Below, one piece after another: positions 29,916 to 61,180 of a stretch of 64,000 nucleotides of DNA. The stretch's first letter is position 1. Every line of letters starts with the position of its first letter. The DNA is from Candidatus Nomurabacteria bacterium (lineage in GTDB: Bacteria > Patescibacteriota > Patescibacteriia > HK-STAS-PATE-3), in assembly GCA_023898465.1 (NCBI GenBank), contig CP060223.1, positions 896,001-960,000 of the forward strand. Direction: 5' to 3'. The position numbers were made by a program, and so were the translations under genes. A model generated the notes under the pieces. That model had not been told where the DNA came from, made no database searches, and saw nothing but the letters and a program-made list of their open reading frames with translations.

Positions 29916-29945
29916 AAACGGATGGGAGGCCTAAATTATCTAACG

Positions 29946-30021
29946 TGGTGGACCCTACCGGGCTCGAACCGGTCACCTCTTCCATGCCATGGAAGCGCTC
30001 TACCAAATGAGCTAAGGGCCC
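29946..30021 (-). tRNA. tRNA-Ala(GGC)
   Basis: Body is almost identical to tRNA-Ala(UGC), but the anticodon stem-loop is cttcc-atggcat-ggaag. G3:U70 present. Confidence 0.9.
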
Positions 30022-30073
30022 ATGTGAACTACGGATATTTTAAGCTTCTTTTCTCCGTACCTGCCTCAGCCTT

Positions 30074-30145
30074 TGCCCCCACCATGAATCGAACATGGAT
30101 CCAGGGCTTAGGAGTCCCTTGTTCTATCCTTTGAACTATGGGGGC
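30074..30145 (-). tRNA. tRNA-Arg(CCU); no encoded CCA
   Basis: Reverse complement gccccca...aggga-ctcctaa-gccct (A31:G39 mismatch)...ccatg-ttcgatt-catgg-tgggggc-a. The loop CUCCUAA matches the E. coli argW loop. Confidence 0.7.
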
Positions 30146-30379
30146 AGGGGCGGCGGCAGGCAATTTTCTTTTACCCGAGATTTTGTAACTTTTGTAAAAA
30201 GTTATTTTTTTGCTAGCCTTTGCAAAAAATAAGCGTCGTAGAATATTATGTTAAAAATGCATCTAAGTTACGAGCCATTATTACACCAAGTGGCCATTTT
30301 CGCAATGCCTAAAGAGCCAGATCGATTGACACAGTAGCATCAACAACTTATTGTTACCACGTTTACCACTCATATACAT

Positions 30380-35385: not shown

Positions 35386-35751
35386 ATGAAACAACGTACA
35401 CGACTGCTCGGCACACTAGCAGCATTTGCTATACTAGCACTTCCGTTGCTTGTTTCCGCCCAATCTGCTTTCACCGTAGAAAACATCGGTGGATCAGTTG
35501 GTCTCGGTACTGCTGACCTCAAAGATACCGTCATCAACATCATTCAATGGGTGCTTGGTATCCTCGCACTCGTTGCTGTCGTTATGATCATCATTGGTGG
35601 TTTCCAGTGGATGACTGCTGGTGGAAACGACGAAAAGGTGGAAAAGGCCAAGAAGATTATCTCAGCCGCGGTAATTGGTCTTATTATCATCTTGTTGGCT
35701 TGGGCTATTGTCATCTTCGTCGCAAATACAACGGCGAATGTCACTACCTAA
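35386..35751 (+). CDS. pilin-like two-TM hairpin protein (VirB2/TrbC-like topology), paralog 1
   Basis: SD agggggtga 6 nt before the ATG. Sec signal peptide ...LLVSAQS/AF. TM1, K-rich loop TAGGNDEKVEKAKK, TM2, C-terminus ANTTANVTT. Confidence 0.7.
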   Translation: MKQRTRLLGTLAAFAILALPLLVSAQSAFTVENIGGSVGLGTADLKDTVINIIQWVLGILALVAVVMIIIGGFQWMTAGGNDEKVEKAKKIISAAVIGLIIILLAWAIVIFVANTTANVTT

Positions 35752-35776
35752 TCCAATCACGTATTTGGACTTTTAG

Positions 35777-35810
35777 AACATACCCAGCTCACTGCTGGGT
35801 ATGTTTTTAT
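35777..35810 (+). terminator. rho-independent terminator
   Basis: aacatacccagc-tcact-gctgggtatgtt followed by tttat. Confidence 0.65.
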
Positions 35811-35873
35811 TCAAAAAAGCCTTACTATGCTATAGTAGTATATATCTTTGAGAAGAAGAGGGGGTGAATATAC

Positions 35874-36230
35874 ATGAAGAAAGCTTTAATCGCAGTCGGT
35901 ACTTTGGCGCTCGTTGCTATGCCAATGCTTGCATCAGCCCAATCTGCTTTCACCGTTGAAAACGTTGGAGGATCCGTCGGTCTCGGTACCGCTGATTTGA
36001 AGGACACCGTCATCAACATCATTCAATGGGTGCTTGGTATTGTCGCCTTAATCGCTGTCGTTATGATCATCATTGGCGGTTTCCAGTGGATGACTGCTGG
36101 TGGAAACGACGAAAAGGTGGAAAAGGCCAAGAAGATTATATCTTCAGCCGTAGTCGGTTTGATTATTGTGTTACTCGCCTGGGCAATTGTTGTATTCGTT
36201 GCAAACACAACCTCAAACGTTACCGCCTAG
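35874..36230 (+). CDS. pilin-like two-TM hairpin protein, paralog 2
   Basis: SD agggggtga. 87-nt and 62-nt segments are nearly identical to paralogs 1 and 3. C-terminus ANTTSNVTA. Confidence 0.75.
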   Translation: MKKALIAVGTLALVAMPMLASAQSAFTVENVGGSVGLGTADLKDTVINIIQWVLGIVALIAVVMIIIGGFQWMTAGGNDEKVEKAKKIISSAVVGLIIVLLAWAIVVFVANTTSNVTA

Positions 36231-36249
36231 CGTACACTTCGCAAATTCT

Positions 36250-36287
36250 GCAAAAGCCCTACCTTATACGAGGGCTTTTGCTTTTTC
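36250..36287 (+). terminator. rho-independent terminator
   Basis: gcaaaagccct...agggcttttgc followed by tttttc. Confidence 0.65.
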
Positions 36288-36307
36288 TGCGCAACTTTTA
36301 TTTTTCA

Positions 36308-36316
36308 TGGTATACT
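36308..36316 (+). promoter_or_regulatory. extended -10 TGGTATACT upstream of paralog 3
   Basis: The same 9-mer as at 17930. Confidence 0.4.
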
Positions 36317-36356
36317 GAATGCATTACATCTTTAGGTAAAGGAGGTGAATGTCAGA

Positions 36357-36725
36357 ATGACCATAAAACGATTTCTTCCCTTAGCGCTACTCGGACTTAC
36401 CTTGGTATTACTGCCTTCTACTGTAGCAGCTCAATCAACCGCCTTTACGATCGAAAATATTGGTGGATCAATCGGTCTCGGTACCGCTGATTTGAAGGAC
36501 ACCGTCATCAACATCATTCAATGGGTGCTTGGTATCCTTTCATTAGTAGCCGTTGTTATGATTATTTTTGGTGGCTTTACCTGGATGACTGCCGGAGGTG
36601 CTGAAGATAAAGTTGATCAAGCCAAGCGTATTATCACCGCTGCAGTAATTGGTCTTATCATCATCTTGTTGGCTTGGGCTATTGTCATCTTCGTCGCAAA
36701 TACAACGGCGAACGTTACCACTTAG
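36357..36725 (+). CDS. pilin-like two-TM hairpin protein, paralog 3
   Basis: SD aaggaggtga. Start chosen at MTIKRF. C-terminus ANTTANVTT. Confidence 0.7.
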   Translation: MTIKRFLPLALLGLTLVLLPSTVAAQSTAFTIENIGGSIGLGTADLKDTVINIIQWVLGILSLVAVVMIIFGGFTWMTAGGAEDKVDQAKRIITAAVIGLIIILLAWAIVIFVANTTANVTT

Positions 36726-46487: not shown

Positions 46488-47539
46488 GTTCGATGAAACA
46501 ACAAAGTGAACAGCTCATTCATGCCACCGAGCGAATCTTTCGTGAATGTGTGCAGACAAATGGGGCTATCACTATCTCTCCTGATAGTAAACTGGTAATA
46601 CCTCATCACGCTGCTTTTGTTACTGTGGCAGCACCTTTTGTTGGTTTAGAGCTTGCTCCAGAATTTTTTGCTTGGGTTAAAAAAACTCTAGAGAATGAGG
46701 AGAATAACGGAGCCTTAAGTAATGCCTATGATTGGGAGGGAAAAGCAACCCATTCGCCAGCCCGATTTGCACCCGAACAAAACGGCGCCATGCTCTGGAG
46801 TATTGATGCCTATATTGAACGACATCCAGAGGAGCTGGCTCATATGAAGGAATTAGTAAGCCTGCTCGTGCAAGGAATTACTCAGCACTGGAAAAAAAAT
46901 GGATTTTCGCGTACTACTAATGAGGTATGGGGGGAACATCATCACATAGGAGCGCCTGAGATGAATCAGCGCTTTACATATGCCCTAGCCGCCTGTGCAC
47001 ATGGGCTTGAACGTGCGGCCGCTCGCTATAAGCAACGGCGATGGAAAGCTATTGCCGGGCAAATGCGTGAGCATATAAATAATGCCTGGGATGAAAACAA
47101 AAAGACTTTTCATCGCGCGCTTGGTAAACATAATGATACAAGCATTGATAGTCTAACTCTCGGACTTTGCTGGCCTTATCATATTTACGAGGCAAAAGAG
47201 AAACGCATGCAGGCAGCTGTCGAACGCATTGAAGAGGTGCTTATTGATGGTGGTGGAGTGCACCGCTTCCAATATGATTACCACGACAGCGAAGGGGATG
47301 CAGAAGATGGTGGTGGTATTTGGCCAGCTCTTAATTTTTGGATGAGCATCTATTTTGTTGAACAAGGCGATGAGGCAAAGGCGCGGGCTTACTTCCAATG
47401 GGTATTAGAACGCGTGCATGAAGAACTCCCAGAACAAATGTTTAAAGATTTTCGTATCGGCATTACTCCTTTTGCCTGGAGTCACGCACTCTTTCTCTTG
47501 GCTGCTCATAGTTTAAAACTTCTCCCAAATGAAGCGTAA
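46484..47539 (+). CDS. GH15-family glycoside hydrolase (glucoamylase/trehalase-like catalytic domain)
   Basis: (alpha/alpha)6-barrel-type motifs: WGEHHHIGAPEMNQ, IWPALNFWMSIY and FAWSHALFLLA. Confidence 0.6.
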   Translation: MSSMKQQSEQLIHATERIFRECVQTNGAITISPDSKLVIPHHAAFVTVAAPFVGLELAPEFFAWVKKTLENEENNGALSNAYDWEGKATHSPARFAPEQNGAMLWSIDAYIERHPEELAHMKELVSLLVQGITQHWKKNGFSRTTNEVWGEHHHIGAPEMNQRFTYALAACAHGLERAAARYKQRRWKAIAGQMREHINNAWDENKKTFHRALGKHNDTSIDSLTLGLCWPYHIYEAKEKRMQAAVERIEEVLIDGGGVHRFQYDYHDSEGDAEDGGGIWPALNFWMSIYFVEQGDEAKARAYFQWVLERVHEELPEQMFKDFRIGITPFAWSHALFLLAAHSLKLLPNEA

Positions 47540-49004
47540 ACTTCGCATCATGAACGTAGCTGCAGAAGTGGCTCCCTATGCCAAAACCGGGGGCCTGGCT
47601 GACGTAGTACATGCGCTACCAAAAGAATTAGTACACCAGGGCCATAGCGTCAGTATTATCATGCCCTGCTACGGCTTCATGAAAAAGCAAAATATTCCCA
47701 TGACTGAGGTGGATCGCTTCCGCATTAGTGTGGGGAGTAAAAACTTTGGAGCGACTATCTATCAAACTGAATTTTCACCAGGCTTAACAATCTACTTTGT
47801 TGCCAATCACGAACTCTTTGGTCGTTCGCGACTCTATGGCTACCCAAACGACAACACTCGCTTCATGTTCTTTTGTAAGGCCGTTGTACGCTTTATTAAA
47901 GAAATGAATAACCGGCCTCATGTCGTTCACTGCCATGATTGGCACACCGGGTTAATACCAAACTACCTCAAGCAAAAATTTAATCACGACCCATCTCTCC
48001 GCTCAATCGCAACACTCTACACGATTCACAACCTACCTTTCCAATTCGGATCAGACTGGTGGAAGGTGCCGCCAAAGCAGCAAGATGACGGACGCGGCGT
48101 ACCCCCTGAAACACCGACGAAGAAGTTGAATCGAGTAAACTTTGCCAAACGCGCCTTACTCAACGCCGACATCATCAACACGGTAAGTGAGCGCTATGCT
48201 GAAGAAATCCTCACCCCAGAATTTGGCCAAGACCTTGATGGAATACTCCGACGTCGAGAAGAAGATGTCTACGGCATTGTAAATGGCATTGACTACACCG
48301 TATATAATCCGGTGTATGATAAAAACATCCCGGTAAACTACGACTGGAACCAGCTCGATAAAAAACAGCTCAACAAAAACGCCTTGCAGCGTAAGGTTGG
48401 CCTAGAGCAAAAAGCTGATATCCCGCTCATCGGGGTAGTGAATCGCTTAAGTGAGCAAAAGGGATTTAACCTGCTACGTGAAATTGCCTACGTGCTCGTG
48501 AAGCTGCCTCTGCAGCTCGTTATTGTGGGAAGTGGACATCCGGATTATGTGCGCTTCTTTAAGCGCTTAGCAAAAAAATATCCTAAGCGGATTGGCTTTT
48601 ACTCTCCTTTTACCGAGGAGCTCGCTTCGCTTACCTATGCTGGCTCTGACATGTTCCTCATGCCCTCGCGCTATGAGCCATGTGGAATTTCCCAAATGAT
48701 CAGTTTACGATACGGCTCTATTCCGATTGTCCGAGAAACAGGCGGGCTCTCTGACACTATTACCAATTTCAATCCAAAGACGCAAAAAGGTATTGGCTTT
48801 GTATTTTCTGGATATACCAAGGAAGATTTTCTCATCGCTATTGTCCGAGCCCTCGAAACCTATCGCTATGCACAGGTCTGGGAACACCTCACCTGGCGAG
48901 CTATGAAAACGTCATACTCATGGGAGGTGCCAGCAAAAAAATATGCGCAGTTATATCGCTTAGCTTATCGACATAAACGGGCACGAAAGAAGGGGACAAC
49001 ATAA
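47529..49004 (+). CDS. glgA: glycogen/starch synthase (GT5)
   Basis: KLRIMNVAAEVAPYAKTGGLADVV aligns to the GlgA N-terminus. Also HCHDWHTGL and the C-terminal GT-B domain. Confidence 0.85.
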   Translation: MKRKLRIMNVAAEVAPYAKTGGLADVVHALPKELVHQGHSVSIIMPCYGFMKKQNIPMTEVDRFRISVGSKNFGATIYQTEFSPGLTIYFVANHELFGRSRLYGYPNDNTRFMFFCKAVVRFIKEMNNRPHVVHCHDWHTGLIPNYLKQKFNHDPSLRSIATLYTIHNLPFQFGSDWWKVPPKQQDDGRGVPPETPTKKLNRVNFAKRALLNADIINTVSERYAEEILTPEFGQDLDGILRRREEDVYGIVNGIDYTVYNPVYDKNIPVNYDWNQLDKKQLNKNALQRKVGLEQKADIPLIGVVNRLSEQKGFNLLREIAYVLVKLPLQLVIVGSGHPDYVRFFKRLAKKYPKRIGFYSPFTEELASLTYAGSDMFLMPSRYEPCGISQMISLRYGSIPIVRETGGLSDTITNFNPKTQKGIGFVFSGYTKEDFLIAIVRALETYRYAQVWEHLTWRAMKTSYSWEVPAKKYAQLYRLAYRHKRARKKGTT

Positions 49005-50248
49005 TGCGCTGGGCCGCCCTCCTACATATTTATCAACCTCCGCACTGGGATGCTCGCGTCATTGCTAAAGTAGTGAGTGAAAGCTATCGACCTTTAGTGG
49101 ATATTTTAACGCGAAATCCCAAGATTAAGATTACGCTAAACATCAACGCCTCGTTGACTGAGCAACTTGCTCGACATGGCTACCTCGATGTTATTGATGG
49201 ATTACGCAGCTTGGCTGAACGAGGACAAATTGAATTTACTGGCAGCGCAAAATACCACCCGATTTTACCCCTCCTGCCAGCTGATGAGGTACGTCGTCAA
49301 ATCCGCCTCAACACTGAAACAAACCGAGCTCTCTTTGGTGATATTTATCGCCCACGAGGATTTTTCCCGCCTGAGATGGCAGTCGATCTCGACCTCATCC
49401 GCATCTTAGTGGAAATGGGATTTGAATGGGTAGCAGTTGACGAATTAGCCGGTGAGAAAAAACTTGGCGATCTTCCTTTAAATAAAAAATATTTAGTTGA
49501 GCCTTTTGATATCTCTCTGGTTCTACGCAATCGTTTCATGAGCGACTATCTGGCCTTTGCGGCTCCAATTGATAAGCCAGGTGAATTTTTTGCTGAGGTA
49601 GAAAAAGAAAAACGCTCAAAGGAAATTCTCATCACTGCAATGGATGGAGAAAACCTTGGCCACCACCGTCCAGGCACTGAACGACTATGGGAGGAGTTAG
49701 TAACAAATCCTTCAGTCGAAATGGTCACCTTCACTGAAGCGCTGGAAGGTTTTAGCACGCAGGAAAAACTCATGGTGCAGGAAAGCAGTTGGTCGACTCG
49801 AGCAATTGATCGAGTCCGCAATGCACCTTATCCGCTTTGGCAGCATCCGGAAAATCAACTTCATCAACTACAGTGGTCGCTCACCACGCTCATCATCGAA
49901 GCGATTAACCAAGCAGAGAAGCGAAGTGACCACACCATTGAACAAGCTCGGATTGCTTTAGACGAGGCGCTGTCTTCTGATCAATACTGGTGGGCCTCAG
50001 CCACGCCCTGGTGGAGTGTGGAGATTATTAATGAAGGAGCCGAGCGACTTGGTAAAGTGTTAGAAGCGCTCAGTGAAGTGCCGCCCGCTACGCAGAAAGA
50101 AGCGCGACAGCTCATTCGCTCAATTCGAGAAACTTCACGTCGCTGGCAGGACAAAGGAGTTGCTTCTCAGCGTATGGCTGAATACAACAAAGAAACAAAG
50201 CAAGTACATTACATGGCTGGACAACGCATTGACGGTTCTGCCAAGTGA
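49004..50248 (+). CDS. GH57-family alpha-glucan enzyme (amylopullulanase/branching/4-alpha-glucanotransferase type)
   Basis: WAALLHIYQPP N-terminus, AMDGENLGHHRPG catalytic region, and SDQYWWASATPWW. Confidence 0.7.
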   Translation: MRWAALLHIYQPPHWDARVIAKVVSESYRPLVDILTRNPKIKITLNINASLTEQLARHGYLDVIDGLRSLAERGQIEFTGSAKYHPILPLLPADEVRRQIRLNTETNRALFGDIYRPRGFFPPEMAVDLDLIRILVEMGFEWVAVDELAGEKKLGDLPLNKKYLVEPFDISLVLRNRFMSDYLAFAAPIDKPGEFFAEVEKEKRSKEILITAMDGENLGHHRPGTERLWEELVTNPSVEMVTFTEALEGFSTQEKLMVQESSWSTRAIDRVRNAPYPLWQHPENQLHQLQWSLTTLIIEAINQAEKRSDHTIEQARIALDEALSSDQYWWASATPWWSVEIINEGAERLGKVLEALSEVPPATQKEARQLIRSIRETSRRWQDKGVASQRMAEYNKETKQVHYMAGQRIDGSAK

Positions 50249-50304
50249 TTGTACGGTAGGTGCGCATAGAACTTTCATTAGACAATTAATTCCTTAGAAA
50301 AAAC

Positions 50305-51675
50305 ATGTATTGGGCAAATTTCCTGCATATTTATCAACCACCAACCCAAAAACCATATTGGGTGAAGCGAGTCACTGAAGAGTCGTATCGAAAAATCGTT
50401 GCTGAATTAAAGCGCGCTCCGGGTGCTAAACTCACTCTGAACATTAGCGCGGTGCTTGTTGAATTGCTGGATAAGAATGGATGTGGAGATGTTATTGATG
50501 ACATTCGTCTCTTGCTCGAGCGTGGACAAATTGAATTAACCAGCTCAGCAAAGTTTCATCCATTACTACCAAAGATTCCCAAGGATGAAGTTATTCGACA
50601 AATCCAACTGAACGACGAAACGCATCGTAAATATTTTGGTGAACTCTACAAGCCGAAGGGATTTTTCCCACCTGAGATGGCCTTCTCTACCGATGTGGCA
50701 AAGATCGTAAAAGAGCTGGGCTATGAATGGATCATTGTTGATGAATTATCCTTCTCTCGCGAAATCGGCAATATTGATTACAGCAAGCGCTACACGGTTG
50801 AGGGTCTGGATGATTTTTCCATCTACTTCCGTGAACGGCGCATGAGCTACAAAATCCTTTCCGGACAATTAGGATCCGGCTCGCTTCTTATTCAGAGCCT
50901 GGGTGATCGATTAAAGAAAAATGAATACCTCCTAACTGCAATGGATGGAGAAACTTTCGGCCACCACCGTCCAGGTATGGAGCACCTCCTTTTTGAGATT
51001 TACGAATCAAAGGAACTCGAAACTATCCTTATCTCGGATATCCCAAAACACTTCCCAGAGTCCACGCCGATTGATCCTTTGCCATCCACTTGGGCGCTGA
51101 TGGAAAAAGACCTTGAAAAGAATGCGCCGTTTTCTCGCTGGCTTGATCCAGGTAACACAATTCATGAACGACAATGGGAATTAACCAACCTGGCGATTAA
51201 GGCGGTACATGCAAGCGATCAAAGCGATCCAAAATTTCCTGAGGTGCGGACAGCGCTTGATCGAGCAATTCACTCAGATCAATACTGGTGGGCCTCGGCA
51301 AAACCATGGTGGAGTATGGAAATGATTGAGGCAGGCGCTAAGGAGCTGTCTGATGTGGTATTAAACGCGCCAGGCTCAAGTGAAGAGGAGAAGGAACGAG
51401 CGAAACAGCTCTACCAAGAAATTATCTATACCGGCTTTGACTGGCAGCGATCTGGTTTAGTGGAAAAGCTTTCCCAGCAAGAGGATGAGGAAATACGACA
51501 GCGAACTGATGAAGCTATTCCTGAATTACCTGCTGAAGAAATTGATAAAATTATTGCGAACTTGCGCAAAGATATCGATGATGTGGTGAAGCGAGAAGAA
51601 TACGAGCGAGCAGCTCAATTGCGCAATCGCATTAAAGAACTCGAGCAATATCGAGACAAAAAAAGTAAAGAATAA
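50305..51675 (+). CDS. GH57-family alpha-glucan enzyme with a C-terminal UVR domain
   Basis: Paralog of the gene upstream (WANFLHIYQPP, AMDGETFGHHRPG, SDQYWWASAKPWW). It also has EEIDKIIANLRKDIDDVVKREEYERAAQLRNRIKELEQ, a UvrB/UvrC-type UVR motif. Confidence 0.7.
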   Translation: MYWANFLHIYQPPTQKPYWVKRVTEESYRKIVAELKRAPGAKLTLNISAVLVELLDKNGCGDVIDDIRLLLERGQIELTSSAKFHPLLPKIPKDEVIRQIQLNDETHRKYFGELYKPKGFFPPEMAFSTDVAKIVKELGYEWIIVDELSFSREIGNIDYSKRYTVEGLDDFSIYFRERRMSYKILSGQLGSGSLLIQSLGDRLKKNEYLLTAMDGETFGHHRPGMEHLLFEIYESKELETILISDIPKHFPESTPIDPLPSTWALMEKDLEKNAPFSRWLDPGNTIHERQWELTNLAIKAVHASDQSDPKFPEVRTALDRAIHSDQYWWASAKPWWSMEMIEAGAKELSDVVLNAPGSSEEEKERAKQLYQEIIYTGFDWQRSGLVEKLSQQEDEEIRQRTDEAIPELPAEEIDKIIANLRKDIDDVVKREEYERAAQLRNRIKELEQYRDKKSKE

Positions 51676-51735
51676 GCAGGTTCTTATATAGAATACGTGC
51701 AGCGCGTCCAAATGGGCGCGCTGTTTGTAAAAAAA

Positions 51736-51744
51736 TGCTACAAT
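51736..51744 (+). promoter_or_regulatory. extended -10 TGCTACAAT placed 9 nt before the ATG (leaderless-type), same geometry as at 21218
   Basis: tgctacaat, then aagtgaagc, then the ATG at 51754. Confidence 0.4.
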
Positions 51745-51753
51745 AAGTGAAGC

Positions 51754-52677
51754 ATGTCACGACTTTCCGCTGAAAAAGTACACTCACTACTCAAACAAAA
51801 AGCTGTTTTTAAGGCTGAGATTACCCATGTGGTACTTGAGAAACACAAAGCCTTTTCTCATTCCAGTCGACTTGCTCGCTATATCGTGTCTCTGGCAAAT
51901 GGGCAAACAAAATATATCCGAGCAAATGTTTGGCCAATCTCAGCTTTTCGTATTGCAGAAGCGCTCAGCGCACAGCAAAGCTTAAAAGCGCCTCAACCGA
52001 TATACTACGACAAGAGTAGTCACACTATTCTTTACGAGGAACTAAATGGTGACACCCTGCGCAGCGTGCCGCTCACCGCAAAAGCATGGAAGCCCATTAT
52101 TCCTAAGGTTGCTCAACTCCTAGCCGCTTTTCATCAAACGCCACTACCTAAGGGCTTAGCACCTGAGACGCAAAGCGCCGCAAAGAAGCGAAGAAAAAAC
52201 CTTGTCCAAGGAATACAAAAGGCTGATAAGGGATATGGCGCACTAGCGAAAGTTGCGTGTAGCCAGCTCGAGTCACAGATTGCTCGCCAGGCCGGAAAAG
52301 TAAAGGCACTCACCCATGGCGATTTCCAGGCAAGTAATATACTCATCGCAAAAAAGAATCTCTCGCTTATTGACTTCACGCTGAGTCGACCAAATCATCC
52401 AGCCAGCGACCTTGGTCTCTGGTTAGTACATTGGCAGGCTATGACGCGCGATCACCTTAGTCACACACAAAGGGAAGAGTTGGGCTATCTCTTTTTACAG
52501 TACTACTTCTCAGCCGTGCCAAAGGCCTGGCACGCACCTATCCGAGCAATGCTTCCAGTCTATGTGAGCGAGGCCACGCTCGAGGTCGCCGCTACCACCT
52601 TGCTTATGTACGGCGCCCACGATACCAATGTTCGCGCATTACTTGATGAATTATTTTCTAGTTTGCACTATGTCTGA
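51754..52677 (+). CDS. APH-like phosphotransferase (aminoglycoside-kinase fold; maltokinase-like candidate)
   Basis: LTHGDFQASNILI catalytic loop and IDFTLS. Embedded in the alpha-glucan cluster. Confidence 0.6.
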   Translation: MSRLSAEKVHSLLKQKAVFKAEITHVVLEKHKAFSHSSRLARYIVSLANGQTKYIRANVWPISAFRIAEALSAQQSLKAPQPIYYDKSSHTILYEELNGDTLRSVPLTAKAWKPIIPKVAQLLAAFHQTPLPKGLAPETQSAAKKRRKNLVQGIQKADKGYGALAKVACSQLESQIARQAGKVKALTHGDFQASNILIAKKNLSLIDFTLSRPNHPASDLGLWLVHWQAMTRDHLSHTQREELGYLFLQYYFSAVPKAWHAPIRAMLPVYVSEATLEVAATTLLMYGAHDTNVRALLDELFSSLHYV

Positions 52678-54130
52678 ACGCATCCTCTTTATCTCAGCCG
52701 AAGTAACACCGCTCGCAAAAGTCGGGGGACTGGCCGATGTGGTTGGCGCCCTACCTCCAGCTCTACGAAAACTGGGAGCTGACGCTCGTATCCTCATGCC
52801 AAAGTATGGCGTGATTGATGAAGAAAAATATCCCATGGAAATACGTGGGCAAGGCATCCCAGTCCAGATTGGACAAGGTACGGTGTATGTCGATCTATGG
52901 GAAACAAAATTACCTAATACTGACACTCCGGTCTATCTCATTGGTAATGACAAATTTTTCGGAGGAAGCCGTATCTATTTTGATGCTTCAGCTTTTGCCA
53001 GCCAGTTTGTGGAATTCGAGCGATTCCTTTTCTTTGCCATGTCGAGCGTGGCCGTGCTTGATGCACTCGAATGGAAGCCTACGATTATTCACTGCCATGA
53101 TTGGCACACCGGATTAATTCCCGCTTTACTCAAGCAGGAGAAGCCTCGCATCGCGACAGTCTTCACCATTCATAACCTAGGCAACCAAGGTAAATGGAAC
53201 ACGCCAGATATTTTCCGCTTCCTAGGTTTGCAAGCGCAGGATCGCGCATCATTTAGCCTGACCGACTCCCAGGGTAATTTTAATTGTTTGCTCCAAGGTG
53301 TAGTGAATGCAGATGCGGTAAATACGGTTAGTCCGAGCTATGCCAAAGAGATTCTCACTGCCGAGTATGGAGAGGGTCTCGAAAAAACACTTCAGCAACA
53401 AGGTGACCGCCTAATGGGAATACTGAATGGGATTGATGTTGAACGCTTTGACCCGAGTCGTAATCCTGACCTACCTGAACATTTCAGTGCGGAGAAGCTT
53501 GAGGGAAAAATACGAGCTAAGGAAGCGCTTCAAAAAGAATGCAATCTCGAAGTAAATAAAGAGGTCCCTCTTTTCAGCTTCATCGGTCGACTCACTGATC
53601 AAAAAGGTATGGACCTGATCGGACAATCAGTTGAACATATTTTGAAGCTTGGTGGTCAGCTGGTTCTACTCGGCAGTGGAATGGATGAATTTGAAAAAAT
53701 TGCCCAGGAAGCGGCGGCAAAATATCCCGGGAAGGTGTACACAAAAATTGGCTTTGACGCAGCACTGGCCCAACGGATATACGCCGGAAGTGACTTTTTC
53801 CTCATGCCCTCAAAATATGAGCCATGCGGACTGGGGCAAATAATTGCCATGCGCTATGGCACTATCCCAGTAGTCCGAGCAACTGGAGGCTTGAAAGATA
53901 CCGTGCCAGACTATACCATGAATAGTGCAGAGGGTAGGGGGTTTGCTTTTACGCCATATGCGGCCAGCGATCTCCAAGATGCTATTACCCGAGCGCATCA
54001 GCTTTATCAAAACCAAACCGAGTTTATTCAACTGCAAAAACGCATCATGGGTATTGACCTCTCCTGGAAGCAATCAGCTCGCCAATACCTTGATCTCTAT
54101 ACCCGCGCCCGACAAGAACAACGACCATGA
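52670..54130 (+). CDS. second glycogen synthase-like GT5 enzyme
   Basis: RILFISAEVTPLAKVGGLADVV, HCHDWHTGL. Paralogous to glgA at 47529 but divergent. Confidence 0.8.
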   Translation: MSERILFISAEVTPLAKVGGLADVVGALPPALRKLGADARILMPKYGVIDEEKYPMEIRGQGIPVQIGQGTVYVDLWETKLPNTDTPVYLIGNDKFFGGSRIYFDASAFASQFVEFERFLFFAMSSVAVLDALEWKPTIIHCHDWHTGLIPALLKQEKPRIATVFTIHNLGNQGKWNTPDIFRFLGLQAQDRASFSLTDSQGNFNCLLQGVVNADAVNTVSPSYAKEILTAEYGEGLEKTLQQQGDRLMGILNGIDVERFDPSRNPDLPEHFSAEKLEGKIRAKEALQKECNLEVNKEVPLFSFIGRLTDQKGMDLIGQSVEHILKLGGQLVLLGSGMDEFEKIAQEAAAKYPGKVYTKIGFDAALAQRIYAGSDFFLMPSKYEPCGLGQIIAMRYGTIPVVRATGGLKDTVPDYTMNSAEGRGFAFTPYAASDLQDAITRAHQLYQNQTEFIQLQKRIMGIDLSWKQSARQYLDLYTRARQEQRP

Positions 54131-55128
54131 AACAAAGTGAAATCCGCCAAGATTACGTTCATAACCGAGTAGTCATTATCTCGCCAGGTCGCTCAAAGCG
54201 CCCGCATGATTTTCATCCTACTGGCACGCCGCACCAGGTTCATCGAGCTGAGTGTCCGTTTTGTCCTGAGCAAGTAGATAAGGTGAAGGCGGTAGCGAGC
54301 TACAAAGGTCAAAAGCCTTGGAGTATTAAGGTTATCAAAAACATCTTCCCGGCGGTTCGGAAAGATAATCCTAAGGCCTACGGTGATCAAGAGGTTGTTA
54401 TTGAAACGCCTGAACATGATTTAGAGCTATCAGAACTTTCTGTCGAGCATATTGAGCAACTTTTGAAAGTATATGCTGACCGTACTTGGGCGCAATCAAA
54501 AGACAAGAAGATTCAATACATCATGATCTTCAAAAACAACGGGGGTCGAGCTGGCGCTTCTATTGACCATGCTCACTCTCAAGTGTTTGCCACAAACTTC
54601 CTCCCACCGCACATTGTCGATAAGCTTCGCCGCGCTGAGGAATATCTTATCCGCTATGGAACTTGTTACTACTGTGACTTGATTGCGAAAGAGGGTAAGG
54701 GACCGCGCATGATCGAGAATAATGAATTTGTTTTTGTGGAAGCTCCCTATGCTTCATCGTATAATTACGAAGCTTGGATCTTGCCAAAGCGCCACCTCGA
54801 TAATATTACGAATCTCAATAAGGCGGAACGTCTGGCTTTTGCAAGGGCGCTAAAAAATATACTTGGCAAGTTAAATAGCATTGGCCTCCCATATAATTAC
54901 TACCTGCACCAGGTGGTTCGCTATGGAAATGAACACCTTTACTTCCGTGTAGCACCGCGTCGTGATGTATGGGCAGGAGTGGAATTAGGATCGCGACTTA
55001 TTGTGAATACCGTACCACCGGAAGACGCCGCCGCCTTTTACCGCGGTGACGATGAGAAAAAGAAAGGTAAGAAAAAGTCCGCAACGAAAAAGCTTTCTAA
55101 TAAACGAAAGTCCGCCAAGCGCAAATAG
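54127..55128 (+). CDS. galactose-1-phosphate uridylyltransferase-like (HIT superfamily; possibly NDP-glucose phosphorylase) with a Lys-rich C-terminal tail
   Basis: CPFCPE zinc motif, SIDHAHSQVFA (HxHxQ), and a C-terminal KKKGKKKSATKKLSNKRKSAKRK. Confidence 0.7.
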   Translation: MKQSEIRQDYVHNRVVIISPGRSKRPHDFHPTGTPHQVHRAECPFCPEQVDKVKAVASYKGQKPWSIKVIKNIFPAVRKDNPKAYGDQEVVIETPEHDLELSELSVEHIEQLLKVYADRTWAQSKDKKIQYIMIFKNNGGRAGASIDHAHSQVFATNFLPPHIVDKLRRAEEYLIRYGTCYYCDLIAKEGKGPRMIENNEFVFVEAPYASSYNYEAWILPKRHLDNITNLNKAERLAFARALKNILGKLNSIGLPYNYYLHQVVRYGNEHLYFRVAPRRDVWAGVELGSRLIVNTVPPEDAAAFYRGDDEKKKGKKKSATKKLSNKRKSAKRK

Positions 55129-55264
55129 CTCGTACTTGCCAAATCCCATGTCGTAGCCGAAGCATTGAGCTTCGGCGGCTTCAATTGATAAAAGAAAACC
55201 CCGACCACAGCGCTAGTCCTCGTGCATAGACACGTGGATAGATGTGATCGGGGAAAGTACGGAG

Positions 55265-55843
55265 CTACTGGTAGATTGACTTCACCTGACCCCAACTCCT
55301 GCTGAGGGTTGGCACCGGCCCGATTGTACCATAGGTCCGGAAGAGCCAATCATACGGCTTTTCTTCGCCTGCACTGTAGGCGGTGCCGCCAGGGTATTCG
55401 CATCCACCTTCTACCCGTCGTTCGGTGGCCCAACCGTTGTTTGAATGCGAAACAGGATGAAGGTAGTAGGTGGCGCCAGGCTGAATGGTCACACCACCGA
55501 AGTCGAAACTGATCCAGTTGTCCCCGCCCGACTCAACGTCTTGCGTCGCAACAGCCAGAACACTCTCGCCAGGCACCACTGAGTTCTGGAGAAAGAGCGT
55601 CACCGTACCCGCGGCTGGGTAAAAGAACAGCTCAACACCGCACAAGTAGTCCATCGTCGGCGTGAAAGACTGCAACAAACAACTTGAAAGTTCTTCCTCT
55701 GGAGTGCAGTACATACTGTGTCCAAAAGTCGGACCGATGATTGGTTCACAGCTCTGGTCGAGGTCACCGCAGGGTGCTTGCGCATTCGCGCTGCTTGCAC
55801 ACAGCACCACCAAAGCAAAAACGAGGCCACTGAAACGCGACAT
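55265..55843 (-). CDS. hypothetical secreted Cys-rich protein (GC-rich gene)
   Basis: Signal peptide MSRFSGLVFALVVLCASSANAQA. 8 Cys. About 57% GC. Confidence 0.45.
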   Translation of the reverse strand: MSRFSGLVFALVVLCASSANAQAPCGDLDQSCEPIIGPTFGHSMYCTPEEELSSCLLQSFTPTMDYLCGVELFFYPAAGTVTLFLQNSVVPGESVLAVATQDVESGGDNWISFDFGGVTIQPGATYYLHPVSHSNNGWATERRVEGGCEYPGGTAYSAGEEKPYDWLFRTYGTIGPVPTLSRSWGQVKSIYQ

Positions 55844-55951
55844 GAGACACCTCCCACTTTGTTTGTAAGGAGCCTTGATTAGCTTTACTGCTTCAATAAT
55901 AAACCCCGACCACAGCGCTGCGCAAGCACAGCCGTGGCCGGGGAAGTACTG

Positions 55952-56470
55952 TCACCAGCCATCCATAGTGGTTGACTGGTAATGGAAGTTGCGCTCCTCG
56001 ATCATGCCGGGATCAACGAGACGATCTCCATAGTAACGCCAGTAGTAAGCCCAGCGTCTCATATCGTCGAAGCTCAGACGCCTCCCAGTACAAGAGAGAC
56101 ATAGGTCACCGGCCTCCAAGGTGCGGCAACGCAAATCCCAGTAGAGAGAACCCTCCGTATCGAGTGGGTATTGACGCCACTGACCCCTGCACCAAGCAAG
56201 AGCGTCGCGCAGATCACGGTCATTGCGCTGATGCCACTCCTGCACCAACTCAGCTTGGAACTCGGGCTCGAGGGTCACTCCCTGGGAAAGAGTGATGAGA
56301 AGATTCTGGGCGCTCCGATCTCCGCCGGCCTGACCCTGAATCGTTCTCCAGGGCTTGGCCTTCATAAACGCGAGGTCCCAGACCTTCTCTCGGTCGCTCC
56401 GAGCATCAGCCTGAGCTAATGTGGCGAAACCGAACAGCATCAACACTAGGACGGTAACCCGAATACGCAT
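55952..56470 (-). CDS. hypothetical secreted protein (GC-rich gene)
   Basis: Signal peptide MRIRVTVLVLMLFGFATLAQADA. Trp/Arg-rich. About 58% GC. Confidence 0.45.
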   Translation of the reverse strand: MRIRVTVLVLMLFGFATLAQADARSDREKVWDLAFMKAKPWRTIQGQAGGDRSAQNLLITLSQGVTLEPEFQAELVQEWHQRNDRDLRDALAWCRGQWRQYPLDTEGSLYWDLRCRTLEAGDLCLSCTGRRLSFDDMRRWAYYWRYYGDRLVDPGMIEERNFHYQSTTMDGW

Positions 56471-56586
56471 GCATCTCCTCCTTGTTTCATGTGCGGTTGT
56501 CGATGTACAGCTGCGTACCGTATACTACGGGTAAGCAACCTTGTCAATCCTTATCCTTCGGAATTCAAGTTTATAACATTAGCATT

Positions 56587-56961
56587 ATGGGTAGTTTCAT
56601 CGAAATCAACGACACGCTCCAACTTACTACTGAGCAAGGCTTTCCCTCGGAGCTTACTTTAGAGAAACACTTGAAAAAGGCGTTCACTGTTGAGGATTTT
56701 AAAGACCAAGTCTTTGAATTTCACCACAAGCCGGACCTGCGGATCTACCACCTTAAACCTACTCGAGTATTTCTCGTTCATAACATTGATGGTAAGTGGT
56801 TGTATTGGGGCCACGCCATGATACTTGAAGAAACGCTCCACGCAGAAACGAAAACAACTTCCGGGAAATTTATCATCACAAAAATTTATTCACCCGAGCA
56901 CCAAAGAACAATGAGCACTATCGAAGTAAGCGAAGGCAAGGAGTATCCTTTTGATGAGTAA
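56587..56961 (+). CDS. hypothetical protein
   Basis: Start chosen at MGSFIEIND. No family recognised. Overlaps the xth start. Confidence 0.35.
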   Translation: MGSFIEINDTLQLTTEQGFPSELTLEKHLKKAFTVEDFKDQVFEFHHKPDLRIYHLKPTRVFLVHNIDGKWLYWGHAMILEETLHAETKTTSGKFIITKIYSPEHQRTMSTIEVSEGKEYPFDE

Positions 56962-57724
56962 ATCTCTAGTGCTGCAATCGTGGAACATTAACGGTATTCG
57001 GGCTGCAGTGCGTAAGGGCTTTACCGATTATCTCAAAAAAGAAAAACCTGATGTAATTGGTCTGCAGGAAATAAAAATAAGCGAAGAAGCGCGCTTGGCT
57101 ACTGAGTTTGATTTTGGAGGATATGTGGAGCATTGGCACTCAGCAAAAAAACCTGGATATTCCGGCACTGCGGTGTTGGTAAAAAACGGTATCGCACATA
57201 CAGCTCTGCCGAAACTAGCCTGGGACGACGAAGGACGAATTCAAGCCATCGATATGGGGAAGTATATTTTCCTTAATATCTACTTTCCTAATGCCAGTAA
57301 TGACGGCTTGAAGCGCCTAGCCTTTAAGATGCAGTGGAATGAAAAGCTGCTTAACTACCTCAAGCAACTTGAAAAGAAAAAACCACTTGTCATCACGGGT
57401 GACTATAATGTGGCACATGAAGAAATTGACCTAGCTCGACCGAAAGAAAATACCCAGAGCCCGGGCTTCACTCCTGAGGAGCGTACCTGGATGACGAAGT
57501 TTCTCAAAACAGGTTACGTTGATACTTGGCGTGAAGCCAATCCGAAGAAAGTACAATACACCTGGTGGAGTCAGCGCGGTGGCGCTCGCAGCCGAAATGT
57601 AGGCTGGAGGATTGACTACTTTTGTGTGAGTCAAAAATTCCTCAAACAAACAACTAAACCGGCTATCCTCGACCAAGTGATGGGCTCAGATCACTGTCCG
57701 GTTAGTTTAATAGTATCCTCATAG
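56951..57724 (+). CDS. xth: exodeoxyribonuclease III (AP endonuclease)
   Basis: LQSWNINGIRA, GLQEIK, and C-terminal SDHCPV motifs. Confidence 0.9.
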   Translation: MMSKSLVLQSWNINGIRAAVRKGFTDYLKKEKPDVIGLQEIKISEEARLATEFDFGGYVEHWHSAKKPGYSGTAVLVKNGIAHTALPKLAWDDEGRIQAIDMGKYIFLNIYFPNASNDGLKRLAFKMQWNEKLLNYLKQLEKKKPLVITGDYNVAHEEIDLARPKENTQSPGFTPEERTWMTKFLKTGYVDTWREANPKKVQYTWWSQRGGARSRNVGWRIDYFCVSQKFLKQTTKPAILDQVMGSDHCPVSLIVSS

Positions 57725-57937
57725 CCGCTGCCTCCGGGCTTTGGCGATGATGAAGTAACGTTTATTCATCTCATATTCCATTGACATCTGCTTTGACTCA
57801 AGGTAATTCAGCTAACCATAGAAATACTGTGGTTAGCTCCTTGAAACAAGTCGAATTTGGAGTACTGCAACGCCTGCAGACAGCCAAAATCGACGCTTCC
57901 ATTAGCGTGACACTGAGCACGTTAAGTGGAGGTTATC

Positions 57938-58894
57938 ATGTCACGGCAAGAAACCTGTCCTCGATGTGTAAAGAAAAACGTTTACGGCGCTCCTCGCCTG
58001 AGAATCACCACTGGAATCACTTGGCTTTGTTACATTGCCTTGTTTACGGCGCTCCTCTGTCTCGCCATTTTCCTGGGAGAGCCAAGCTCTTTCAAGAAGA
58101 GCATTGTGCTCATGTTCATCATCGTTAACGCGGCAACTCTGCTAGGCGCCGCTCACGACCTCCTGATACCCAAGCGGGTTTGGATATGGCGCGATAGAGG
58201 AGACAGTGTACATATTCACAAGGAAGCTCCAACGCTTCCCGACTTCGACTTCTGTGGATTCAAACATCCACTCGTTATGGCCTGGATCAACCGGCCGTGG
58301 CGTCGAGCTGACCTAAGTTGGGGTGCTGACACCTCGGGCATGTGTCTTCCTGAAGTCACTATGTCTTGGACACGCAAACGTCCATACTTCATCGTCACCT
58401 ACCACCAGCTTGGGACGATAACGCAGACTATCCGGATTCGGATAACTGAACCATCCACCATGCTCGACACCCTGAACTGGATTCGCTTCGCACCCAACCC
58501 TTTCAACTTTCAGGCGCACCTCGAGTCGCTAGATAATGAGAGGAGAGTCTCCCATACACTACACGAGCAAACAGAGTGGCTTACCTGGCTCAATGAACTC
58601 GTGTGCGCGCTGTACGTGGCTACCGAGCGACGGCGTACCTCGCTTGGCCAATCTCCTCATGGTCAGTTTGTTCACGCTTATCTCGGCCACCTGCTTGGCT
58701 TCATGCGAGTCCACAACATAACAGGAAGGGAAAGCCCAAACCATGCGGTCCGGGTAGAGGATGAGGCAACACAGATCGCCGACACCATCGCGTCAGCTAA
58801 GCAGGAGGGGGGTAAACACTGGGCAGAACGAGCTGCGGACAAGGTTTGGGAAAACCGAAATCGAGCAGCGCTTGAACCCGTCACTGAGTCGTGA
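57938..58894 (+). CDS. hypothetical membrane protein
   Basis: SD ggagg 7 nt before the ATG. CPRC pair near the N-terminus and 2 TM helices. No family recognised. Confidence 0.4.
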   Translation: MSRQETCPRCVKKNVYGAPRLRITTGITWLCYIALFTALLCLAIFLGEPSSFKKSIVLMFIIVNAATLLGAAHDLLIPKRVWIWRDRGDSVHIHKEAPTLPDFDFCGFKHPLVMAWINRPWRRADLSWGADTSGMCLPEVTMSWTRKRPYFIVTYHQLGTITQTIRIRITEPSTMLDTLNWIRFAPNPFNFQAHLESLDNERRVSHTLHEQTEWLTWLNELVCALYVATERRRTSLGQSPHGQFVHAYLGHLLGFMRVHNITGRESPNHAVRVEDEATQIADTIASAKQEGGKHWAERAADKVWENRNRAALEPVTES

Positions 58895-58903
58895 CAATTC
58901 TAC

Positions 58904-58937
58904 GCGCCCTGATCTCTAGGAGATTGGGGCGCTTTTT
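58904..58937 (+). terminator. rho-independent terminator (copy 1 of a duplicated 43-nt module)
   Basis: gcgccc-tg-atctc-tag-gagat-tg-gggcgc followed by ttttt. Confidence 0.65.
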
Positions 58938-59100
58938 ACATTGACGAAATTTTCTGCGCTTGCTAGCGTGAGTCCGCATGAGGAAATGCCTCACGTAAGC
59001 TCTTTACAATAGAGCAATCCTGTAACAAGCCGACGCAAGTAAGGCAATTTGCATCCGCTTGTTTCCCGCCTTGAAAAATCAGGGCCGGTAAGGAGTAAAA

Positions 59101-59931
59101 ATGACCTGCGCGAAAGAATCTACCAAAGAGTTGGATCTCACCAACTACCTACCTCTTCCCAGGGGCGGCTTGCGATGGACGGTCTCCACGCTATGCTTTT
59201 CCCTTGCTGCTTTTCTGGGACTCTTCTTGCTCTTCAAAATGGCCGTCAATAGTGAGGGGCTATGGTGGTCACGCCTGTTCTACGGCTGCCTGATTATCGC
59301 CATCTTAGTCTCACTACTTGGATTTTTTGGCTTGAAGCTACTCCGATTCAACTATGCGTATTGGAGAAGAAATGTGAGGGGTTACTACATCTCCTATCCG
59401 CAAATGGATCGAGTGTACTATCGTGGCGAGCGGGCCAAGGAAAGCTTGGCACTCGTAGAGATGCACCTAGCTCTGGGCGGTTGGCGCCATCAACTTGGGA
59501 GCTTTCATCGAGGCTTTGTGGTTACCTCGCGAGACACTTCCGCGGACTCCATCTTTTGGTATGGAGTAAAAATCGTTCAACAATCACCACAACCTTCAGG
59601 GCTTCGCGTGATCGTCTACAGTCACCGGAAAAAGGAACAAACACCACCAATGAGCCTACGGCATGCCAGCGTGCTTATCGGTAAGTTATGCCGCAACCAG
59701 AGCTCCTTGGAACTTGAGTTTGCAACCTTTCTCACCAGTGAAGATGGGCTCGTTAACGCCTGTATTCGCTTGCTTGAACGGATAAAGACAACCTCGCGCT
59801 TATCCTCTACACAAGAAGGTAGGGCCTTTGCTCGAGATCTTGCAACTGCGGCACTCAGTCACTCCATTCGTGGAACTCGGGAACACCGAGAACTTGTGGA
59901 TCTGCAAGAATACTGGGGTCGAACCAGGTAG
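59101..59931 (+). CDS. hypothetical membrane protein
   Basis: SD aaggag before the ATG. 2-3 TM helices. No family recognised. Confidence 0.4.
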   Translation: MTCAKESTKELDLTNYLPLPRGGLRWTVSTLCFSLAAFLGLFLLFKMAVNSEGLWWSRLFYGCLIIAILVSLLGFFGLKLLRFNYAYWRRNVRGYYISYPQMDRVYYRGERAKESLALVEMHLALGGWRHQLGSFHRGFVVTSRDTSADSIFWYGVKIVQQSPQPSGLRVIVYSHRKKEQTPPMSLRHASVLIGKLCRNQSSLELEFATFLTSEDGLVNACIRLLERIKTTSRLSSTQEGRAFARDLATAALSHSIRGTREHRELVDLQEYWGRTR

Positions 59932-59956
59932 ACTCACTTCTCAGTGACAATCCTAC

Positions 59957-59993
59957 GCGCCCTGATCTCTAGGAGATTGGGGCGCTTTACTTT
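59957..59993 (+). terminator. rho-independent terminator (copy 2 of the module; overlaps the tyrS 3' end)
   Basis: The same hairpin as at 58904, followed by tttacttt. Confidence 0.6.
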
Positions 59994-61180
59994 ATCTGCA
60001 CAAACCGTCGCTTCCCAACCTGAAGCAAGGGTGCCTTTTTTGCATCCAATTCCTTTGCGCCATCTTTCTCTACCTTGCCATCAATACGGACCGCTCCTTG
60101 CTCAAGCATGCGACGTCCTTCTGACTTTGATGGCACCAACTTTGCGCTGACTAAAATTTCTAACAGCGTGCTTTTTTGCTTCAGGCTGAACTCTGGCACC
60201 TCGTCTGGAGTGGCACCTTTTTGAAATACATTTTGAAATTCAGTTGCCGCCTTATCCGCATCGTTTAAGGAATGATATTGTGCAACCAGAGTATGGGCCA
60301 GCTTTGCTTTGACGTCGCGGGGATTATGGCCTGACTTCAAGCCTTGCGCCATTTCCTCGATCTCGGATAATGGTAAACGACTTAGTAAGGTAAAAAACGT
60401 AACAATCTGCTCGTCAGGAATACGCATGAGCTTGCCATACATATCTTTAGGCGTGTCAGAGAGCAATATTGCGTTGCCATAACTCTGACTCATCTTGCGC
60501 TTCCCGTCAGTACCGACGAGCAAGGGCATAATTACTAAATCTTGCGGAGACTGTTTTGCAGCCTCTTGAAGTGGGCGCGCCTGCAGCTCGTTAAATGTTT
60601 GATCACGACCAATCACTGTCACGTCAGCTTTCAACATTACCGAATCATAACCCTGCAAAAGGGGGTAGGTAATTTCGTGCAATCCAATCTCTTTGCCCTC
60701 TTTCATGCGTTGCTGAAACATGTCCCGCTCAAGCATGCGCTGGACGCTCACCTGAGAGAGTAAGTGAAGAAAATCCTCGGCTGACATTTTATCGTACCAC
60801 TCAGCATTTGAACGTACTTCAACCTTCTTAATATCAAGTATTTTACCTAACTGTGTAACATATTTCTTGGCCAGGCGATGTACTTCTGCGGCCGAACGAA
60901 GCGCTCGACGCTCAGCTCGATCAGTTGGATCACCGAAACGGGCCGTAAAACCACCGATTAGGAACTGGATAGTGTGACCTGCTTCTTGAAATTGGCGCAA
61001 CTTTTCATAAATAACTGCGTGACCCAAATGGAGGTCGGCAGTGGTCGGATCAACTCCGTGCTTAATCTTTAGCTTCTTGCCTGAGGCTAGCTTCTTCTCT
61101 AAGGATGCTCGAACTACGACCTCCGCAACGCCTCGGTCAAGTAAATCGCTTCTCATTGATTGGGCCTGTTTTTTCGCCAT
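59987..61180 (-). CDS. tyrS: tyrosine--tRNA ligase
   Basis: GVDPTTADLHLGHAVIYEKLRQFQEAGH (HIGH region), KMSQSYGN (KMSKS), and a C-terminal S4-like domain. Confidence 0.9.
   Translation of the reverse strand: MAKKQAQSMRSDLLDRGVAEVVVRASLEKKLASGKKLKIKHGVDPTTADLHLGHAVIYEKLRQFQEAGHTIQFLIGGFTARFGDPTDRAERRALRSAAEVHRLAKKYVTQLGKILDIKKVEVRSNAEWYDKMSAEDFLHLLSQVSVQRMLERDMFQQRMKEGKEIGLHEITYPLLQGYDSVMLKADVTVIGRDQTFNELQARPLQEAAKQSPQDLVIMPLLVGTDGKRKMSQSYGNAILLSDTPKDMYGKLMRIPDEQIVTFFTLLSRLPLSEIEEMAQGLKSGHNPRDVKAKLAHTLVAQYHSLNDADKAATEFQNVFQKGATPDEVPEFSLKQKSTLLEILVSAKLVPSKSEGRRMLEQGAVRIDGKVEKDGAKELDAKKAPLLQVGKRRFVQIK

Follow-up and report, generated by a model that had tools for sequence, protein, structure and literature searches.

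The window analysed here is a stretch of 64,000 nucleotides (nt) from a metagenome-assembled genome (MAG) of Candidatus Nomurabacteria, a member of the Patescibacteria or candidate phyla radiation (CPR), whose source contig measures 1,082,586 bp (a genome of about 1.08 Mb). Between galT and tyrS, it carries four genes for secreted or membrane proteins, referred to below as A192, B172, C318 and D276, together with xth and a hypothetical gene, H124. In the public annotation, the genes of this locus are all hypothetical proteins (H6760_04750 to H6760_04775); the record includes the proteins USN53377 and USN53435-USN53440, under locus tags H6760_04410 to H6760_04775. An earlier note, made from the sequence alone, had described the interval as a single island rich in guanine and cytosine (GC), with xth and the hypothetical gene embedded in it. 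The locus is not a single island, however. It consists of two hypervariable intergenic slots in a conserved backbone, galT / H124-xth / tyrS, as H124 and xth are conserved in a sister species at 76-87% amino-acid (aa) identity and a variable slot lies on either side of them. Each slot is made of self-contained accessory units comprising a leader with a Shine-Dalgarno (SD) site, an open reading frame (ORF) and a strong intrinsic terminator. The features of the locus, in window coordinates, are the following:

55186 to 55253, minus strand: T1, the hairpin site 3' of A192 (hairpin 55199-55253, U run 55186-55198; -31.2 kcal/mol, z = -4.4).
55215 to 55919, minus strand: the A192 unit as delimited by two 19-nt cores, 705 bp, holding the SD leader, the ORF and its own hairpin arm and loop.
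55265 to 55843, minus strand: A192, a secreted 192-aa beta-sandwich protein with the C-terminal tail SWGQVKSIYQ.
55895 to 55943, minus strand: T2, the hairpin site 3' of B172 (hairpin 55904-55943, U run 55895-55903; -35.3 kcal/mol, z = -5.3).
55952 to 56470, minus strand: B172, a secreted, all-helical, Trp-rich protein of 172 aa.
56519 to 56547, minus strand: promoter-like site of B172 (TTGACA, 17 nt, TATACG); an overlapping plus-strand match is also listed.
56587 to 57724, plus strand: the H124-xth backbone that separates the two slots, of native composition (GC 42-45%).
56587 to 56961, plus strand: H124, hypothetical gene (76% aa identity in the sister species).
56954 to 57724, plus strand: xth, exodeoxyribonuclease III (Exo_endo_phos, E = 1.7e-29; 85-87% aa identity in the sister species).
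57725 to 59986, plus strand: the slot 2 block, from the xth stop to the tyrS stop, 2,262 bp, with zero intergenic DNA at this place in the sister species.
57938 to 58894, plus strand: C318, 318 aa, with two predicted transmembrane (TM) helices followed by a 240-aa soluble domain.
58891 to 58935, plus strand: first copy of a 45-nt module (hairpin 58904-58932), overlapping the C318 stop codon.
59101 to 59931, plus strand: D276, 276 aa, with two predicted TM helices followed by a soluble domain.
59944 to 59988, plus strand: second copy of the 45-nt module (hairpin 59957-59985), whose final two T are shared with the stop codon of tyrS (59987-59989, minus strand).

The closest B172 homologue, together with tyrS at 90% identity, led to the sister species, which is represented by two short contigs from one sample (L092 and L093, both SRR32105342). 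L092 carries, in this order, xth (87% aa identity), H124 (76%), a B172-like gene (P0125, 45-50%), one terminator and galT (84% nucleotide identity). On L093, tyrS (90%) and the 3' end of xth (85%) are convergent and their stop codons overlap. A192 is absent from slot 1 of the sister and the C318-D276 block from its slot 2, making both of them indels relative to this species, one of 705 bp (the A192 unit) and the other of 2,262 bp. Neither xth nor tyrS differs between the two species in the length of its C-terminus, and both C-termini are similar to those of outgroups, indicating that the slot 2 indel is exactly intergenic (57725-59986, 2,262 bp versus none). Junctions inside xth or tyrS, read from the ends of BLAST alignments, were rejected because these equally long, outgroup-like C-termini have simply diverged. 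An inverted 9-mer, TGCAGATAA, at the ends of the sister xth and of the window tyrS, was dismissed as post-hoc.

B172 differs from the other three genes in that it is syntenic in the sister species. Both hexamers of its promoter are identical in L092, as are 12 of the 17 spacer positions, and the L092 terminator is 86% identical to T2 over 51 nt. At non-synonymous sites the gene has evolved four to six times faster than its neighbours (dN of 0.44 versus 0.07-0.12). Since B172 is syntenic and its promoter and terminator are conserved, we regard it as an old, fast-evolving resident. In addition, a tyrS homologue (P0198, 68%) and a B172-family protein (P0195) both list 12,308 bp as their longest JGI contig, and a distant relative may also keep a B-family gene near tyrS. 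The earlier note suggested that the whole island was horizontally acquired or recently rearranged cargo, possibly of secreted effectors, to which conserved synteny in relatives would run contrary. For B172 that synteny is what we found, whereas the duplicated modules do mark rearrangement and A192 and C318-D276 are indeed missing from the sister. Atypical composition combined with absence from a close relative, as expected of an island, thus characterises A192 and the C318-D276 block and fails for B172.

The possibility that the locus is an assembly or binning artefact, with GC-rich foreign reads misjoined into the MAG, is hardly credible. Repeats of this length can break short-read graphs, and one contig (L001) does end inside the 45-nt module. 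However, two independent Logan assemblies from different runs agree with the locus at 100% and 99.97% identity, including the joins from galT through A192, B172, H124 and xth to C318; B172 is syntenic in another species, and the source contig extends over 1.08 Mb.

The GC content reaches 55.4% in A192, 56.6% in B172, 53.6% in C318 and 50.9% in D276, compared to 47.0% for the whole window, 45-47% for galT, xth and tyrS and 42-43% for H124. The rise reported in the earlier note (55-58% against about 45% in the flanks) is real, but it is smaller (51-57% versus 47%), and the GC-rich DNA forms two patches with about 1.25 kb of native composition in between. Windowed GC and tetranucleotide analysis, which the note had proposed as a check, showed that composition is non-uniform, clearly so for the A192/B172 patch (tetranucleotide deviation z = 1.4-2.4) and slightly for the C318/D276 patch (0.2-0.7). 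The GC content at third codon positions (GC3) of B172 is 64-74% in both species, and relatives of B172 and D276 in other hosts are likewise GC-richer than their own flanks. Elsewhere in the window, GC-rich genes encode ordinary Pfam domains, CofD at 859-1869 (55% GC) and a PfkB kinase at 4101-5138 (57% GC), so raised GC is here not restricted to orphan genes. The contigs of relatives with 71-81% identity in xth (L083-L087) have a GC content of 52-56% versus 47% in the window; GC among these relatives seems to vary by nearly 10 points, and the GC-richer ones are plausible gene donors. The raised GC and GC3 may reflect horizontal arrival from GC-richer donors, or else biased conversion towards GC at a locus prone to recombination, and the data fit either origin.

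When read in the sense of the upstream gene, each of the four 3' sites of the locus shows a stable hairpin followed by a U run (folding energies -22.9, -22.9, -31.2 and -35.3 kcal/mol; z = -4.3 to -5.3). They rank 1, 2, 3 and 6 among the 60 genes of the window for the strength of the 3' hairpin and U run, and the presence of such a hairpin after each of the four genes is beyond chance. A GC-rich hairpin with a U run just 3' of the stop codon is the sequence signature of Rho-independent terminators, and the four hairpins most likely act as such, insulating each unit. The 3' sites also resemble each other in pairs. A 45-nt direct repeat (58891-58935 and 59944-59988) is identical at 44 of 45 positions and had 0 matches in 100 shuffles, while a 19-nt exact repeat, AAACCCCGACCACAGCGCT, starts at 55196 and 55901, and no shuffle contained at least two matches to it. 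This core occupies 55196-55214 within T1 and 55901-55919 within T2. The start-to-start spacing is 705 bp for the 19-nt repeat and 1,053 bp for the 45-nt repeat. In 1.2 Mb of related loci, neither module occurs beyond the orthologous site. Both had been noticed before as a shared 18-nt core at 55197 and 55902 and a near-identical 43-nt module; the repeats themselves stand, with one mismatch in the longer, and only their lengths and the positions of the core had to be adjusted. The hairpin of the long module had been described as bulged, but as RNA it forms a perfect 13-bp stem that includes two G-U pairs.

Both pairs have direct terminator repeats around their downstream gene, the 45-nt copies enclosing D276 and the 19-nt cores A192. 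We compared all 18 terminator candidates of the window with each other (153 pairs). The top three were three adjacent, co-oriented pairs in GC-rich patches, namely C318/D276 with a score of 35, A192/B172 with 20 and a CofD-like gene with a 109-aa ORF with 15, the next best pair reaching 11 (mean 7.4, standard deviation 2.9). The single terminator of the sister species aligns with both T1 and T2. Its loop is like that of T2, its U tail and downstream flank are like those of T1, and the switch from one to the other falls in the identical 19-nt core, so that the sister terminator looks hybrid.

We propose that self-contained gene units are gained and lost via recombination at terminator repeats, a reading to which we give a probability of roughly 55%. 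Incoming DNA with an ORF and a related terminator would recombine with a resident terminator, either by a single Campbell-type crossover or by homology-assisted illegitimate recombination, and the newcomer would end up flanked by direct terminator repeats. The same repeats could later permit clean deletion of the unit. On this reading A192 would be a newcomer beside the older resident B172 in slot 1; slot 2 holds the membrane proteins C318 and D276. Directly observed are the repeats, the hairpin folds, the indels that set the window apart from the sister, the conserved position of B172 and the protein folds described below. What the locus presents is ordinary accessory-gene flux in a small genome, with an unusual repeated footprint in the form of terminator-bracketed single-gene units.

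Several points weigh against recombination at the terminators as the source of these units. Had the sister lineage undergone deletion between the repeats, its terminator would be expected to be the same hybrid. The 5' arms of T1 and T2 are about equally distant from the sister terminator, so the crossover model is not favoured over duplication of a whole terminator. The neighbours of xth were all different in the 80 species-representative loci with which synteny was compared (xth identity no higher than 64%) and in four Logan contigs (71-81%); these distant relatives (xth 64-81%) have lost synteny and do not serve as an outgroup for polarising the indels. Each module has two copies only in the 64-kb window, and the modules had 0 matches in genome_contigs, IMG/VR and JGI metagenomes. 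About half of the GC excess stems from amino-acid composition, the remainder from codon choice. The third-ranking terminator pair is only weakly similar (15 versus a background of 7.4 +/- 2.9). Finally, the neighbourhood holds genes for glycogen metabolism, galT, tyrS and one gene reading as a class A penicillin-binding protein, with no recombinase or mobile-element gene among them.

The same hybrid terminator is exactly what a deletion between direct repeats would yield if the genes were ancestral and had been lost in the sister, A192 through its terminator repeats and C318-D276 through streamlining, with the GC content set by amino-acid composition and GC-biased conversion. That half of the GC excess is due to amino-acid composition agrees with such a loss. 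So does B172, which is clearly old and yet GC-rich, its GC3 being high in both species, so that high GC is no proof of recent arrival. We nevertheless consider this account unlikely. Only a very precise deletion could take out 2,262 bp and leave full-length xth and tyrS C-termini with overlapping stops. C318 is without relatives among 1.84 billion cluster representatives and D276 has a single one, and the 44/45 identity of the 45-nt copies argues for a recent event.

The complete hairpins, not the core alone, that lie on both sides of A192 speak for another explanation, in which slippage or unequal crossing-over produced a tandem copy of a gene and its terminator, one of the two ORFs was then overwritten or diverged past recognition, and the terminators were kept similar by selection or gene conversion. 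Both 5' arms resemble the sister terminator, and the repeats are tandem, direct and just 705 and 1,053 bp apart, as such a duplication would have it. Outside the modules, however, neither A192 and B172 nor C318 and D276 show any similarity to each other, in protein or DNA. Paralogy of the two pairs was tried and rejected, as BLASTP gave E-values of 0.33 and 0.72 and the alignment scores lay inside the shuffle range. Moreover, A192 is a beta-sandwich and B172 is helical, two unrelated folds, and full divergence of the coding sequence beside a 98%-identical 45-nt 3' untranslated region is implausible. Tandem duplication therefore appears rather improbable, and recombination between an incoming and a resident terminator remains our preferred reading.

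The weaker third pair of the terminator comparison brackets an ORF near the beginning of the window:

423 to 850, minus strand: third instance of a terminator-bracketed ORF, third-best of the 153 terminator pairs.

It sits downstream of the GC-rich CofD/YvcK-like gene, and the order is a hairpin, Ta (822-849), after that gene, an SD site, the 109-aa ORF and a second hairpin, Tb (431-458). The ORF (467-796), GC-rich as well, is the hypothetical protein H6760_04410 and has no Pfam match. Ta and Tb have the stem arm CAGCGTA in common and a 12-nt loop in both, with a compensatory change at the outer base pair.

With this case the pattern occurs three times in 64 kb. Its layout, in which ORFs that are unrelated and for the most part orphans each precede a near-identical imperfect palindrome, recalls chromosomal cassette arrays. 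The hairpins could then be the sites of a dedicated cassette system whose recombinase, integron-like or of a single-strand HUH/Y1-like type, is encoded elsewhere. We hold this to be very improbable. The R''/R' boxes of attC sites (RYYYAAC/GTTRRRY) gave 0 pairs in 55100-60100 on either strand, with 0.9 expected from shuffles. The stems are perfect as sense-strand RNA only, owing to their G-U pairs, which fits a role at the transcript level; B172 at least has its own conserved promoter; and the hairpins fall into three distinct families rather than one. Over roughly 10 kb upstream and 4 kb downstream there is no integrase or transposase gene; no recombinase was found among the genes at 45-64 kb, and no Rfam match in the region. 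Classical hallmarks of islands and prophages are likewise missing at the locus: the nearest tRNA gene is at 30146, PHROG matches and IMG/VR relatives number 0, and there is no integrase nearby.

Relatives of the four proteins were sought with an exhaustive phmmer search against the cluster representatives mentioned above. It returned 58 remote homologues for A192 (27-45% identity), 11 for B172 (28-50%), one for D276 (P0153, 33% over the N-terminal 156 aa) and none for C318, which matched only itself. The term orphan, applied to all these genes in the earlier note, strictly fits C318 alone, while its description of them as secreted or membrane, compositionally atypical and lineage-specific is borne out. 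The four proteins and H124 had nothing above threshold in Pfam, PHROGs, PADLOC or NCBIfam, and sequence searches of the PDB gave no match for the four. With PADLOC, C318, D276, B172 and H124 had no match and the A192 hit to Csx24 (E = 0.028) is noise. Nothing in these four collections ties the genes to effector, phage or defence families. The fold check that the note had suggested for 55265-55843 and 55952-56470 gave a beta-sandwich for A192 and a helical fold for B172, the latter with no structural match in the PDB or in a viral library. Profile scans of metagenomes and viruses for the B172 family found none, and the A192-family alignment is too diverse for deriving a search pattern. A192 had been credited with 8 Cys, but it has 7, of which 6 follow the predicted signal peptide.

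C318 and D276 share a layout seen in hydropathy, with a pair of N-terminal hydrophobic helices preceding a 200-240-aa soluble domain. C318 has its own promoter-like site (57781-57809) and an SD site, the promoter-like sites upstream of C318 and D276 being only consensus-like. The SD sites and starts at 57938 and 59101 are as described before, and the P0153 homologue backs the latter. D276 is annotated from Met47, as a 230-aa protein (USN53440), and the upstream ATG at 59101 has a strong SD site. This start would add the stretch encoded at 59101-59238, in which P0153 conserves the D276 residues YLPLPxGGLR upstream of the annotated start; the annotation is therefore probably too short and ATG 59101 is favoured. 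The 276-aa form is found on a Logan contig of 1,077 bp, which is close to the unit in size.

The closest known family of A192, a distant one, is the extracellular beta-sandwich family DUF4082 (PF13313) / choice-of-anchor R (NF041539). A192 itself has no match to DUF4082 or choice_anch_R at E <= 0.1, and does not reach the curated cut-offs. Its homologues match DUF4082 with a best E of 8.8e-6 (3 of 21) and choice_anch_R with E = 3.4e-4 (2 of 21), the bit scores shown all being below the cut-offs. A192 is an extracellular beta-sandwich whose relatives carry alternative C-terminal sorting signals, including PEP-CTERM and IPTL-CTERM, and A192-type domains occur in tandem with dockerin, PKD, fn3 and cadherin-like domains. 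A192 thereby resembles a binding module of the cell surface, from a family of the "choice-of-anchor" type. Unlike DUF4082 and choice-of-anchor R, many members of the A192 family end in a short SWGxIKxxYR tail without a TM segment. A tail of the form [ST]WGx[IVL]Kxx[YFWH]R, placed no more than four residues from the C-terminal end, is present in 12 of 58 A192-family and 5 of 11 B172-family representatives (carriers include P0126, P0129, P0133, P0134 and P0165); in other A192-family members it is replaced by PEP-CTERM, IPTL-CTERM or TM plus basic tails. A192 ends in its own version of it (encoded at 55265-55294), B172 no longer has one, and the families themselves are not related to each other. 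The tail is covered by no Pfam or NCBIfam model, and a literature search gave nothing relevant. It looks like an undescribed sorting or anchoring signal.

A bolder proposal, to which we attach little probability, is that Patescibacteria take up and shed single-gene units by way of their terminator hairpins, the hairpin doubling as transcription stop and attachment site of an unrecognised recombination system analogous to integrons, with the three terminator-bracketed GC-rich ORFs in 64 kb as its footprints. Separately, and as part of the same long shot, the tail may be a new sorting signal common to the unrelated A192 and B172 families and alternating with PEP-CTERM-type anchors.

Other repeated features lie outside the locus. 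Glycogen-metabolism genes are duplicated at 47529-54130, with GH57 paralogues at 49004-50248 and 50305-51675 and a glycogen-synthase-like pair at 47529-49004 and 52628-54130, and these duplicated genes share nucleotide blocks at 80-84% identity. Ten tRNA genes form two loose clusters (28214-30146 and 18993-25280), where a truncated tRNA-Ala-like fragment (28214-28248) adjoins tRNA-Ala (28263-28338). At 35447-36720, a unit of about 480-495 nt is present in three tandem copies, 77-83% identical over 300 nt. These copies overlap small ORFs with signal-peptide-like starts and look like a small tandem paralogue family.

The genomes of Patescibacteria are tiny and streamlined, these bacteria presumably live attached to host cells, and how they gain and lose surface genes for host contact is poorly known. 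The locus offers an example, resolved to the base pair, of single-gene secreted or membrane units added or removed between housekeeping genes, in which the sole scar is the duplicated terminators and no machinery of classical mobile elements can be seen. Should the pattern extend across the genome, terminator repeats could serve as a simple marker of recent gene flux in these organisms. The locus also provides candidate cell-surface factors: a helical secreted family, a beta-sandwich family with alternative anchors and a possible new C-terminal sorting tail.

Among known systems, the locus resembles genomic islets, which are short atypical accessory blocks of mostly hypothetical surface or membrane proteins lying between core genes and present or absent among close relatives. 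It differs from them in that it has no tRNA gene, integrase or insertion sequence and that its units are single-gene. A newcomer bracketed by duplicated terminator hairpins is, to our knowledge, not a standard feature of islets. Integron cassettes and clusters of attC sites lacking integron integrases (CALINs) likewise consist of unrelated orphan ORFs in one orientation, each followed by a similar imperfect palindrome. In contrast to these, the units described here lack the R''/R' consensus, have hairpins that are perfect as RNA and followed by U runs, carry their own promoters or promoter-like sites and SD sites, amount to two copies per family and have no IntI nearby. Terminators derived from repeats exist, such as the Correia elements of Neisseria and the repetitive extragenic palindromes and bacterial interspersed mosaic elements (REP/BIME). 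With these the present hairpins share a GC-rich stem and U tract directly 3' of ORFs, and the use of a repeated sequence as terminator. Dispersed repeats of the MITE or REP type are marked by many copies per genome, terminal inverted repeats and target-site duplications, none of which could be demonstrated here with two copies of each module in 64 kb. Unlike them, the copies found in the 64-kb window lie on neighbouring genes only, and they coincide with gene indels.

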